Source of the DNA: Puniceicoccales bacterium
Lineage (GTDB): Bacteria > Verrucomicrobiota > Verrucomicrobiia > Opitutales > JAIRLM01
Direction: 5' to 3'
NCBI GenBank assembly: GCA_031282685.1
Contig: JAITDG010000050.1
Span: 1 to 53,305 of the forward strand
Length of the DNA stretch: 53,305 nucleotides
Positions 6,464-9,583 of the stretch are shown in pieces (position 1 is the stretch's first letter; the number at the start of each line of letters is the position of its first letter). The translations under genes were made by a program, and so were the position numbers. Below the pieces are notes generated by a model. The model did not search any database. It was not told the DNA's origin and saw only the letters and a list, made by a program, of their open reading frames with translations.

Positions 6464-9400
6464 TTGCCATCCGAACCGCTCTCCGAGCCCGTGAGAGGGG
6501 AAAATGTCTCCAAGCAAGCTGTATTTTGCGACCATCATAATTTGCTTGCTTTTTTCCCCGCACTGCTCAATGGTTGCGAAATGATGAACCTAGATGTTCC
6601 CCATGAGCTTCCCCATCTAAGCAAACTTACAAATATTTTCTACGGTAGTCTTATTAGCTGCAATCTGCCGCTTACTATGGAAAAAAGTTTCGGCAAAGAC
6701 GTAGATCCGTCATCCCTATTTCTCCTGTTGCATAGGCCGGAACAGCCAGGATTTCGCGGATTTTGCTGCGTTACGCAGCGGAACCTGGCAAACATCGCTA
6801 GTACTACCTACTGCATGATACATGTGGCGGCACTACTCAATGTCTGTCGAAGGAACCGCCGAAGTGTCGACGAGGAATTGAATAATGCCGCCCTAGCGGC
6901 GTCAGCCCTATTCCTGCTCCGCATATGCTGGAGGGAGATATATGATAGGGTGCCGGAACTCAGGGAGGCTCGCTTTATTTTCGAGGCTGGCCCTCTGCTT
7001 AGACTTGAACACGCCCTAGAGAGTGGCCCATACAGTGTGGCGGACGATTTCCTTTCCGTCCGCGGCAGACTCCCTTACGTAGAGGTGGCATACGATGGAT
7101 TTAGTGGCTTGTTTAGCATCCAAACAATTCCGCAATGGAGATTTCAAGGGTCAGTCGGTGATCTCACTCAGATCTTCTGCGAAGCATTCTTTCAATTTGC
7201 GCTTAGAGTAGGGCTAAATCCCAGCCAGAGTGGATCGAATGTCCTTGCTAGAGAAATGTCATTTTTTTACGCCGTAAACGTTTTAAATTTCGGTCTCAGC
7301 AATGTCGGAGCGGAAGAAAATGGGTTCCTACAAATTTGTCAAGCAATTATTGTGGAGAGATTTAGCAACATCATCCGATCGCCGCGCTACCCCTGCTTTG
7401 AAGTGCTCTTTCCAGCTCTTTTTCAACTGTTAAACGAAATCATATCTAGCATTCCCCGTCCTGATGTGTCTGCCTGGCCCCAAATTTCTAGTCTGGACCG
7501 CTGGTTTTGCGTGCCAGGGAGCCAGATAGTGGTAACACGTGAAACTTTCTTGGCCGGGACAATGTCAGGATTATTCGAAGAGGGCAAAGTCTCCTTCCTC
7601 AAGGAAACTTTCATAGTCCCGGATGGCAGCCTATTCGATCAAGCGTACAAAGCGCTTTGTAGTAAGACAGTTGATCCTAAATTTTTGTATTTTGGTCCCA
7701 TGGGACAGGAAAGTATCCGCGAAACAACGACCGCAGTTAAAGTTGTCCTCGGCACCTTCATATTGTTCCACTGTCGCGCGGAAGCAACCGTTAGCAAACA
7801 GTTTCCCGAAATCCCAGTGTTCCAATTCACCCAAGTGGCGCTGCTTGAAGAAATCTTAAGACCGAACTCGCAGGATATTAGTGACACTAATCCGCCGCCG
7901 TATCCGTATGTGCTCATGGGCGATTCGCGGGCCGGCTGCGCGCCATCGACTCCTTCTACTCCACTCCTCTCTGCGGCGGTACCGAAGTCGGCTGTCGCAG
8001 CGGGTGAAACGCCAGCTCACATCGAGAGTTGTGGCGGACTTTCATTCAAGGTAGTGAATTGCGGTGGTGCCGGAAGTTGCTTTTTCCACGTTCTTGCTTC
8101 CTGGCTGCCGCATACTAAGTTCGACCCACGCAAGCAGGCAGAATGCCGGCAATTTCTTGCCAAGGGATGGCTCAAAGATATCGGCCTTGCCCTTAGGTGG
8201 TCACAGGAAAAGTTCCATGGCCAACAGGTCATCCTCTCTTTCATCAACTTTATGATCTCTGAGTTGGATTTTGCGCTGAGTCAGCCAACCATAGATCAAG
8301 CGGTTGCTGGCCGTCTGAAACGTAACATAATCCGTTCGGCCGAACTAATTCATTGGTTTGAGATTACACGAAATGAACTTCCGGTAATCACTACCAATGC
8401 CGTGAAGCAAGCATTTTCCGATCTTGCCAATTGTATCACGAAACTGAATGCTGAAAATGTGGACGATGTCGCCTATGGCGGAGTTGTGCATAAAAGAAAT
8501 TTGCTGGCGTTGTACGTGGCTAGAGCTAATCTCTCCTTTTTTGCATTTAGAGGGAAGGCGAAGGACATTCATTTTTCGGATAGATTCATAGAGGACTCCC
8601 TTCATGCAGATCAAAAAAAAGATCTAAATAATAATCCATTCTATAGGCAAATTGGCAGTGCGATAGCAAGTCCGACTCCGGAAAATATCGCGTCCACCTG
8701 CTCGAGTGGCTACCGCTTGAATCTTGCAGTGGTCGAAGCAGTACTTCAATCCTGCCCGGACGATGGAAAGAAGCGTGAGCTCATGGCGAGGGTGAGTCGC
8801 ATAAAGTCCTACCCAGATTCATTCTCGCCGGAAGATCGATCTTCGGAACTTAGGAAGATAGCGAGAGAAATGAATATTCCATTGCCGTGGTATGGCTTTA
8901 GCGATGACGAATTTCATAATAGTCTTGACAGCGTACTGTTTGGTCGCGATGCGCCCGTATCCTTTTCGGTTATCTCTAGAACTTTTCAAGGAAGTGGCTG
9001 GCGCAATGACTCGCGCATGCGTCTGGGTAGAACCGTGCTCCACGTTACCGATACCATTCTCAACGACACCGGCTGGGGAGGCGATCTCGAGCTCGCTAGC
9101 ACCGCCAGGACTTTTGGAATTCCGGTACTTTTCATGTCTCGGGACGAGCAGAACGGGTGGTGTCTCGCCATACCACTTTTAGATTCTTCGCAGGTGCTGA
9201 CAGTCTCCTTCAGCTCGGAGATGATGATCCCAGTGGTGCCCAATGAAGATTTGTCCAATTATCCCTGGAATCCCGAACTGTTCTCCATCTTAGATGAAGC
9301 TTGCAAAATCGTGGACTTCGAAATTGAAAATGATTTCAAGGAAGTGCTGGAACCTGGTGTTTTGTTTGAATATGATGAAGAAGGAAGGCGAGTGCCGTCA

Positions 9401-9583
9401 ACCTATAGCTATATTCTAGGGCTTTTTGGTGATATTGAGTCTATGAATGGCTTTTTAGTGAACGTTCAAGGGCAATTGCGCGCCAAATACGCAGAATTTC
9501 TGCAATTCTGCTGCCGGGAAAGGGGCTGTGCCTGTTTCTACCACCAGAACGGCCACTGGTTCCGCGCGGAGTTGCAGGACTAG
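6464..9583 (+). CDS. Large hypothetical protein with OTU-like cysteine-protease motifs in the C-terminal half (candidate deubiquitinase effector). The start may be the ATG at 6581.
   Basis: Uninterrupted 1039-codon ORF in an AT-shifted segment. Motifs are 'VVNCGGAGSCFFHVLA' (Cys at 8078-8080), 'TGWGGDLELASTARTFGIPVLF' (9071-9136) and a terminal 'NGHWF' (His at 9554-9556). Confidence 0.8.
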   Translation: MPSEPLSEPVRGENVSKQAVFCDHHNLLAFFPALLNGCEMMNLDVPHELPHLSKLTNIFYGSLISCNLPLTMEKSFGKDVDPSSLFLLLHRPEQPGFRGFCCVTQRNLANIASTTYCMIHVAALLNVCRRNRRSVDEELNNAALAASALFLLRICWREIYDRVPELREARFIFEAGPLLRLEHALESGPYSVADDFLSVRGRLPYVEVAYDGFSGLFSIQTIPQWRFQGSVGDLTQIFCEAFFQFALRVGLNPSQSGSNVLAREMSFFYAVNVLNFGLSNVGAEENGFLQICQAIIVERFSNIIRSPRYPCFEVLFPALFQLLNEIISSIPRPDVSAWPQISSLDRWFCVPGSQIVVTRETFLAGTMSGLFEEGKVSFLKETFIVPDGSLFDQAYKALCSKTVDPKFLYFGPMGQESIRETTTAVKVVLGTFILFHCRAEATVSKQFPEIPVFQFTQVALLEEILRPNSQDISDTNPPPYPYVLMGDSRAGCAPSTPSTPLLSAAVPKSAVAAGETPAHIESCGGLSFKVVNCGGAGSCFFHVLASWLPHTKFDPRKQAECRQFLAKGWLKDIGLALRWSQEKFHGQQVILSFINFMISELDFALSQPTIDQAVAGRLKRNIIRSAELIHWFEITRNELPVITTNAVKQAFSDLANCITKLNAENVDDVAYGGVVHKRNLLALYVARANLSFFAFRGKAKDIHFSDRFIEDSLHADQKKDLNNNPFYRQIGSAIASPTPENIASTCSSGYRLNLAVVEAVLQSCPDDGKKRELMARVSRIKSYPDSFSPEDRSSELRKIAREMNIPLPWYGFSDDEFHNSLDSVLFGRDAPVSFSVISRTFQGSGWRNDSRMRLGRTVLHVTDTILNDTGWGGDLELASTARTFGIPVLFMSRDEQNGWCLAIPLLDSSQVLTVSFSSEMMIPVVPNEDLSNYPWNPELFSILDEACKIVDFEIENDFKEVLEPGVLFEYDEEGRRVPSTYSYILGLFGDIESMNGFLVNVQGQLRAKYAEFLQFCCRERGCACFYHQNGHWFRAELQD

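Follow-up and report, generated by a model that had tools for sequence, protein, structure and literature searches.

A candidate OTU-like cysteine protease with two large inserts in a fast-evolving protein family of Puniceicoccales

The window analysed here is a stretch of 53,305 nucleotides (nt) from a Puniceicoccales bacterium (contig JAITDG010000050.1), a bacterial chromosome fragment with a GC content of 57%. It contains an open reading frame (ORF) from 6464 to 9583, in the product of which an initial annotation, made from the sequence without database searches, had pointed out three short motifs of OTU-family cysteine proteases. Judged from profile comparisons, the core of this protein, its C-terminal ~520 residues, is homologous to OTU domains, as that annotation had supposed: a profile of the protein family ranks viral OTUs (vOTUs) first among PDB chains, and the match strengthens when two large inserts are spliced out. 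The protein is very probably an OTU-related cysteine protease resembling the Lot deubiquitinases of Legionella. The reading favoured overall, that it is a secreted deubiquitinase or a protease of ubiquitin-like proteins (Ubls), is given a probability of roughly 0.6.

The frame of 1039 codons announced from the TTG at 6464 is present and intact, and residues are numbered throughout from that codon, following the initial annotation. The Cys loop, WGG..EL and His-loop motifs were all recovered. The Cys loop VVNCGGAGSCFFHVLA is encoded at nt 8051-8098, with Cys539 at 8078-8080. The variable loop TGWGGDLELASTARTFGIPVLF lies at nt 9068-9133, one codon upstream of the position given before (9071-9136), and the His loop NGHWF places His1031 (9554-9556) eight residues before the C-terminal residue. 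The gap that separates the Cys loop from the WGG motif, earlier put at ~330 aa, measures 332 aa, and the Cys-to-W spacing ranges from 304 to 367 aa across the family. The start codon is uncertain, with the NCBI annotation giving 1030 aa and the JGI annotation 775 aa for the same gene. The likely true start is ATG 6581/6584 (Met40/41), which is favoured by the alignment of orthologues and would yield a protein of about 1000 aa.

The protein had been called an orphan, which it is not, since five relatives and two syntenic orthologues were found, giving a family of eight proteins including the window protein. The five relatives (P0002 to P0006) were retrieved by an exhaustive phmmer search of 1.84 billion cluster representatives at E 3e-54 to 2e-6. 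Four of them have an NCBI name and are labelled Puniceicoccales, and P0003 is a JGI metagenome protein. The two orthologues, L001 (JAIRTQ010000050, Ct408_bin89) and L002 (JAIRMB010000035, Cc175_bin8), were reached via a genome scan with Der and belong to close 'Puniceicoccales bacterium' metagenome-assembled genomes (MAGs). Word-indexed homologue searches returned nothing beyond the query or known members, and relatives were not found in two metagenome scans. The C-terminal ~520-aa module is present in all family members. The N-terminal domain (~470 aa) is common only to the three syntenic orthologues and absent from the remaining members; searched as a profile against PDB sequences and in NCBIfam, it gave no match. 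The non-syntenic members have unrelated N-termini, one with a long Pro/Ala/Gln-rich region. In another Puniceicoccales MAG (locus L022), the paralogues P0006 and P0004/P0008 (LBB14_01770, LBB14_01775) are adjacent as a tandem duplication, and one of the two bears a ~300-aa Pro/Ala/Gln-rich N-terminal extension.

Compared with PDB chains as a single sequence, the window protein gave non-significant matches only, and four of these five weak matches were viral OTU domains aligned via the Cys loop or the WGG loop. A profile of seven family sequences ranked the vOTUs 7y5m and 11ny first, at E 2.9e-4 and 3.2e-4 and with two loops aligned in order, the other matches being coiled-coil noise from the insert. 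For the core profile A6 both inserts were removed, with boundaries taken from the secondary structure of an AlphaFold model and not from an OTU alignment. All of the top 21 PDB matches of A6 were nairovirus-type OTUs, the best at E 2.2e-6 (30.8 bits), a value that includes an extra degree of freedom, as the splice boundaries were chosen by the analyst from the model. Entries for the Crimean-Congo haemorrhagic fever virus (CCHFV) vOTU appeared in this search at about 2e-4. The A6 matches form one contiguous alignment over OTU residues ~29-145, beginning with the strand that precedes the Cys loop and ending with the strands that follow the variable loop, and the vOTU 11ns was matched at E 0.0027 by the variable-loop segment alone. 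In the reversed-sequence control the best E was 0.75, for unrelated proteins with no OTU among them. Furthermore, a scan of viral contigs returned a 243-aa giant-virus protein (L019:3675-4406) with the Cys loop LLECGGDGDCFFHVL, which scores 24.4 bits against the Pfam OTU threshold of 23.3; seven of its eight relatives also match Pfam OTU. The family aligns with the profile of these giant-virus OTUs at 94-95% probability in hhalign, with the full or the spliced profile, over ~25 Cys-loop columns only.

The residues of the candidate active site are conserved in the family. Seven family catalytic modules, 21-27% identical to the window protein, share 24 invariant positions. The Cys loop holds G534, G537, C539, F541 and A545 of these; G873, E876 and V888 belong to the variable loop and the next strand, H1031 and W1032 to the His loop, and two arginines, R562 and R856, are among the others. 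The 43 residues of the motifs singled out in the initial annotation contain 10 of these 24 positions, where 2.0 are expected (hypergeometric P = 4e-6). Because of this enrichment, the motif residues are, as far as the alignment tells, the constrained residues of the family, and a chance resemblance is excluded as far as function is concerned. The Cys loop follows the pattern G-x-x-G-[DS]-C-[FLY]-F-x-x-[VL]-A, invariant or near-invariant in 7/7 members. The aromatic position of the variable loop is W in four members, Y in two and S in one, the window protein reading W871-G-G-D-L-E. Seven residues before the cysteine (Cys-7) the members have N/D/D/E/E/D/E, with N in the window protein. Two residues after the histidine (His+2) stand F, V and L in the window protein, L001 and P0002, respectively, and T in P0005, and this is a gap column in P0003, P0004 and P0006, where the ungapped residue is Q, A or K.

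Structure prediction from the single sequence reached a pLDDT of 40, and AlphaFold supplied with six family sequences modelled the 523-residue module at a pLDDT of 79.1 and a pTM of 0.78 (model numbering plus 516 gives protein numbering). The model starts with a β-hairpin (4-15), Cys23 at the N-terminus of helix 23-31 and an all-helical block (39-310). A short hairpin, helix 337-349, the W-G-G at 355-357 and helix 358-368 follow, and then strands 372-376, 383-388 and 395-400. A second insert (401-503), partly of low confidence and with a long helix last, leads to the terminal hairpin (506-510 and 516-521), which turns at His515. This insert of ~100 aa between the β-sheet and the His strand is an addition to the earlier description. 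The order of strand, Cys-helix, helical lobe, variable loop, helix, three strands and His hairpin suggests an OTU fold as found in vOTU and OTUB1, by succession of elements rather than by superposition. The all-helical insert sits where OTUs have their helical lobe, or Lot enzymes their extended helical lobe, and is presumably the S1 ubiquitin-binding region. The early guess of a Lot-like helical insertion fits both the predicted secondary structure and the conserved D/E/N at Cys-7.

For the catalytic geometry, the isopeptidase activity, the nature of the substrate, the secretion and the host, we infer the following scheme. The protein would be modular, with the C-terminal ~520 residues forming a highly diverged cysteine protease of OTU fold (papain-like, clan CA). 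Cys539, at a helix N-terminus, would be the nucleophile and His1031, preceding the aromatic Trp1032 on the last β-hairpin, the general base, with Asn532 (Asp/Glu in the relatives) at Cys-7 as the likely third residue of the triad, as in A20-type and Lot OTUs. The variable loop W871-G-G-D-x-E would clamp the Gly-Gly tail of the substrate. Export would most likely proceed via the type III secretion system (T3SS) of the same genome, and the enzyme would act in a eukaryotic host cell, probably that of a termite-gut flagellate, where targets of the host or on the bacterial surface would be freed of ubiquitin or a ubiquitin-like modifier. Targeting would be the task of the lineage-specific N-terminal domain and of the PPxY-bearing linker. 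The PPPY reported before is indeed encoded at nt 7892-7903, the corresponding linker of either syntenic orthologue contains PPNY, and each of the three has exactly one PPxY, in a Pro-rich linker 32-62 residues before the catalytic Cys. By chance, a PPxY arises in 2-3.5% of shuffled linkers; the motif is common to L001 and L002 by descent, and the three cases therefore amount to effectively two independent observations. A function of the PPxY as a WW-domain ligand is speculation.

The substrate is the point at which another account comes closest. An OTU-fold protease could act on NEDD8, SUMO, an ATG8/ATG12-type modifier or a protist-specific Ubl instead of ubiquitin, or the scaffold could serve acyl/acetyl transfer, deamidation or endopeptidase cleavage. 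The fold evidence bears equally on this account and on the favoured one, and the 270-aa helical lobe in the S1 region is without a counterpart of known specificity. Nairovirus OTUs, in addition, also cleave ISG15. EmcB-type relatives likewise cleave ubiquitin and further Ubls (PMC12501173), but the bacterial OTUs confirmed in PMC7396840 were, with one exception, ubiquitin-specific. The W-G-G..E variable loop, which holds the Gly-Gly tail in OTUs, is moreover retained in the window protein, and a non-ubiquitin substrate or chemistry is regarded as unlikely.

In the genome, the gene lies between dnaG (4637-6391) upstream and der/engA (9663-11087) downstream, which is followed by aspS. The gene order orfA-orfB-dnaG-X-der-aspS is kept in L001 and L002, X being the syntenic orthologue. 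X shares only 27-28% identity with the window protein, compared to 75-87% for DnaG, Der, a 230-aa ORF and AspS. The GC content of the gene is 48.8% versus 63-64% in the flanking dnaG and der, and that of the orthologues 50.3% and 52.6% versus about 59-60% in their flanks. A recent horizontal insertion as the source of the low GC content is ruled out because three genomes carry the gene in synteny and each of their copies is shifted towards AT.

The conserved position between two core genes would suit a housekeeping or bacterium-internal cysteine protease that is not exported, whether part of a Ubl conjugation or defence operon or a cell-envelope peptidase. However, an identity of 27% against 75-87% for the neighbours is not housekeeping behaviour, none of its neighbours is an E1, E2, Ubl or JAB gene, and among about 15 billion proteins the family occurs in a single host-associated lineage only. 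The varied N-terminal modules and the tandem duplication in one MAG are both typical of effectors, and an internal function is hardly to be expected. The initial annotation had directed the enzyme at the host on the ground that bacteria have no ubiquitin system. Bacterial ubiquitin-like conjugation operons do exist, and that premise was too absolute; the conclusion of a host target stands because no E1, E2 or Ubl gene flanks the gene. A bacterial ubiquitin-like operon is ruled out on the same neighbourhood. Fast divergence, varied N-termini on a constant module, tandem duplication and restriction to one host-associated lineage are plausibly the traits of an effector.

A putative delivery machinery is encoded in the window itself, as a string of T3SS genes (Table 1). 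The SctD/YscD/CdsD-like protein has 455 aa with FHA and YscD domains (E 5e-10 to 2e-7), the SctI inner rod scores 35.6 bits against a cut-off of 32.4, and the SctF-like needle protein is matched at E 7e-6, below the Pfam cut-off. The string is chlamydia-like, and it is a notable find in a termite-gut Puniceicoccales/Opitutales MAG. We know of no sequence consensus for T3SS signals, and the connection from this string to the OTU-like protein is one that we infer. The sample codes of L001 and L002 are those of the lower termites Calcaritermes temnocephalus and Cryptotermes cavifrons, and both lie in the accession range of Mies et al. 2024 (PMC11257099). A large clade of termite-gut Opitutales (families LL51 and UBA9783), to which these MAGs may belong, is described there as lower-termite-specific, genome-reduced and putatively endosymbiotic, with Ca. 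Nucleococcus, which lives in the nuclei of termite flagellates, as a relative (PMC11257099; see also PMC8204192). A host-directed role is plausible because T3SS genes occur in the window and the lineage is a termite-gut, possibly endosymbiotic one.

Several results, in addition to the analyst's choice of splice boundaries, weigh against a secreted OTU protease. Pfam OTU (PF02338) gave no match at E <= 10 with full-length members, C-terminal halves or constructs with a single insert removed; with both inserts removed, one of seven members matches at E 0.11, below the gathering threshold. The search with an OTU-family hidden Markov model suggested earlier thus ended with the Pfam OTU threshold reached by no member or construct, and a NCBIfam search gave no match. 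The C-terminal half alone does not match the giant-virus OTU profile in hhalign (E 0.48), and none of the solved Lot chains was matched at E <= 10 by the unspliced or spliced family profile. Foldseek, the other check that had been proposed, found nothing at E <= 1e-3 for the whole model against PDB and BFVD, because helical bundles matching the insert dominate. OTUs are present among its weak matches, which is suggestive only: in PDB, LotA OTU2 (7f9x) at rank 5 (E 0.62, TM 0.11-0.19) and OTUB1 at ranks 23, 34 and 36; in BFVD, a CCHFV OTU fragment at rank 6, with a probability of 0.38 (the maximum of the list), and three giant-virus OTU/ubiquitin-hydrolase entries.

The missing Pfam match, the lack of a significant Foldseek match and a robust hhalign match of only ~25 columns are also what would be expected of a coincidental resemblance of motifs in a domain unrelated to OTU or papain-like proteases. 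Such a coincidence is most improbable in view of the profile matches to OTU domains at E 3e-4 and 2e-6, with two loops in order and a negative reversed control. The match of 11ns through the variable-loop segment alone, the invariance of the candidate catalytic residues and an order of secondary structure that matches the OTU fold argue in the same direction.

Two further points against concern the active site. The canonical acidic or amide residue at His+2 (D, N or E) occurs in none of the seven members, the window protein having Phe1033, and the window protein alone departs from its six relatives by Asn instead of Asp/Glu at Cys-7 and Ser instead of Asp at Cys-1. The latter departures, together with the very fast evolution and the AT shift, could be signs of a weakened or inactive OTU-like scaffold in the source genome, that is, a pseudoenzyme or a ubiquitin-binding protein. 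However, Asn is accepted as the third residue in papain-like and OTU triads, Cys539, His1031-Trp1032, Gly873 and Glu876 are retained, and the intact frame of 1039 codons speaks against decay, which makes loss of activity very unlikely.

Beyond the secreted OTU-like protease as such, a more far-reaching proposal is entertained as a tentative and rather doubtful one. The protein would be the founding member of an unrecognised OTU subclass restricted to Opitutales/Puniceicoccales symbionts of termite-gut flagellates, some of which live inside the nucleus. No OTU would be known with a larger helical lobe (~300 aa); the protein would also have a second insert, and its Lot/A20-type triad would have evolved without a link to that of Legionella. 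With a chlamydia-like T3SS as its injection route, it would take part in an arms race with the protist ubiquitin system, its PPxY recruiting WW-domain (NEDD4-type) ligases.

Table 1. Coordinates of the OTU-like gene, its predicted parts and the putative T3SS gene string in the window
Feature	Positions	Strand	Remarks
Whole ORF	6464..9583	+	1039 codons, TTG start, uninterrupted frame; stop codon included
N-terminal domain, fold unassigned	6584..7873	+	residues ~41-470; invariant LCWRE and NFGL motifs
Pro/Ser/Ala-rich linker with PPPY (nt 7892-7903)	7874..8020	+	
Putative OTU core part 1: β-hairpin, Cys loop, Cys539 at helix N-terminus; Asn532 (8057-8059) at Cys-7	8021..8104	+	
All-helical insert, residues ~555-826	8126..8941	+	AlphaFold model residues 39-310, mostly pLDDT above 80
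Putative OTU core part 2: invariant Arg856, variable loop W871-G-G873-D-x-E876 (9074-9091), helix, three β-strands	8981..9211	+	
Second insert, residues ~917-1019, partly low-confidence, long helix at end	9212..9520	+	AlphaFold model
Putative OTU core part 3: β-hairpin with His loop, His1031, invariant Trp1032, stop codon	9521..9583	+	
T3SS gene string, putative delivery machinery	24315..27123	+	order: sctD, DUF5398, SctF-like needle, TPR chaperone-like, SctI

Among the other genes of the window, the ORF at 33-3881 (+) encodes 1282 aa at 42% GC, compared to 57% for the window, and is without a match in Pfam, NCBIfam and PDB-sequence searches. Its syntenic orthologue in L001 is only 26% identical, and it may be another fast-evolving effector. 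The adjoining ORF at 3920-4510 (+; 196 aa) is 39% identical to its counterpart in L001. Pfam gave no match for another four ORFs, of 345-638 aa (46656-48368 (-), 50949-52865 (-), 22015-23052 (-) and 14857-16617 (+)); the first of these, with 570 aa, shows a GC dip (51%) resembling that of the OTU-like gene. The ORF at 48722-49588 (-; 288 aa), beside lpxB, contains a Mu-like prophage I protein domain (E 4e-14) and may be a prophage remnant. Two MFS_1 transporters are adjacent at 37887-39311 (-) and 39392-40573 (-). Organophosphate/sugar-phosphate antiporters are reported to be typical of termite-flagellate endosymbionts (PMC11257099). In the ORF at 19340-20494 (-; 384 aa), elongation factor P (EF-P) domains cover residues 204-383 only, and the first ~200 codons are probably an artefact of calling the longest ORF.

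Effectors that are OTU deubiquitinases have been reported in Legionella, Chlamydia, Rickettsia, Wolbachia and Coxiella, as well as in some viruses; within the searchable literature, there is no description of one in Verrucomicrobiota or in the symbionts of termite-gut flagellates. If the favoured reading is true, manipulation of host ubiquitin extends to the endosymbioses of termite-gut protists. The family would also provide a second, apparently independent case of an extended helical lobe plus A20-type triad, with a lobe ~50% larger than in Lot, and inform on the evolution of the S1 site. A T3SS combined with fast-evolving OTU effectors would be a genomic marker of an intracellular lifestyle in uncultured Opitutales. 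In practical terms, the family is an example of enzymes that are missed by Pfam, NCBIfam and whole-model Foldseek. The effector class itself is already known; what is likely new is a variant of it with a larger lobe and a second insert, and not a system of another kind.

The closest solved relatives by sequence are the nairovirus-type vOTUs (CCHFV 3PHW/3PSE; 7Y5M, 11NY), at E 2e-6 to 3e-4. These are compact, with ~170 aa and without large inserts, and they use the canonical C...H-aromatic-D triad (PMC7396840), whereas His+2 is Phe in the window protein. The giant-virus OTUs (L019:3675-4406; IMG/VR GVMAG contigs) have a near-identical Cys loop, [DE]CGGxGDC[FL]F, down to the acidic Cys-7 position. 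However, the similarity extends over ~25 columns only, leaving the rest and the whole C-terminal half unaligned, and the giant-virus proteins are compact (~240 aa). The likeness of the Cys loops may stem from shared ancestry or from exchange among protist-associated entities. Compact giant-virus OTU proteins are also encoded at loci L025-L041 (IMG/VR contigs).

Like ChlaOTU, wMelOTU, RickOTU, EschOTU and the EmcB family, the window protein would be a eukaryote-like OTU protease in a host-associated bacterium. None of these was retrieved by sequence, and none has inserts of such size. OTUs hold the substrate's Gly-Gly tail with the aromatic residue of the variable loop, and their Cys loop is supported by a conserved basic residue (PMC7396840). 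Plausible counterparts in the window protein are W871 for the former, and R562 and R856 for the latter. EschOTU and EmcB are circularly permuted (PMC7396840; PMC12501173), whereas the order of Cys before His is kept here, which rules out a permuted OTU of the EmcB type.

A further comparison is that with the Legionella Lot deubiquitinases (LotA OTU2, LotB/Ceg23, LotC), whose helical lobe has a 'roof-like' topology. They are defined by ubiquitin-binding helical lobes of 178-210 aa, compared to 110-120 aa in otubains (PMC7690952). The canonical OTU triad is threaded as C...H-aromatic-D/N/E (PMC7396840), whereas A20-type and Lot OTUs have an acidic residue N-terminal of the Cys, such as D21/C29 in LotB, D17/C24 in LotC and D296/C303 in LotA-OTU2 (PMC10133868). 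The family described here shares with Lot the lack of an acidic residue at His+2 and the acidic or amide residue ~7 positions before the Cys (N532/C539 in the window protein, D/E in the relatives), and among the OTUs of the Foldseek PDB list 7f9x (LotA OTU2) ranks highest, at a non-significant score. It differs from Lot in that sequence similarity to solved Lot chains was not detected, in the spacing of 332 aa between the Cys and the variable loop as opposed to lobes of 178-210 aa, and in the extra ~100-aa insert before the His strand. The likely route of delivery is a T3SS and not Dot/Icm, the phylum is Verrucomicrobiota, and the presumed host differs. A Lot-type mode of working is suggested because the extended lobe, the lack of D/N/E at His+2 and the D/E/N at Cys-7 occur together. 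Taken together, sequence and model indicate that the family likely resembles a Lot-type OTU in its extended lobe and its putative A20-type triad, that it is no sequence relative of the Lot proteins, and that it has an additional insert.

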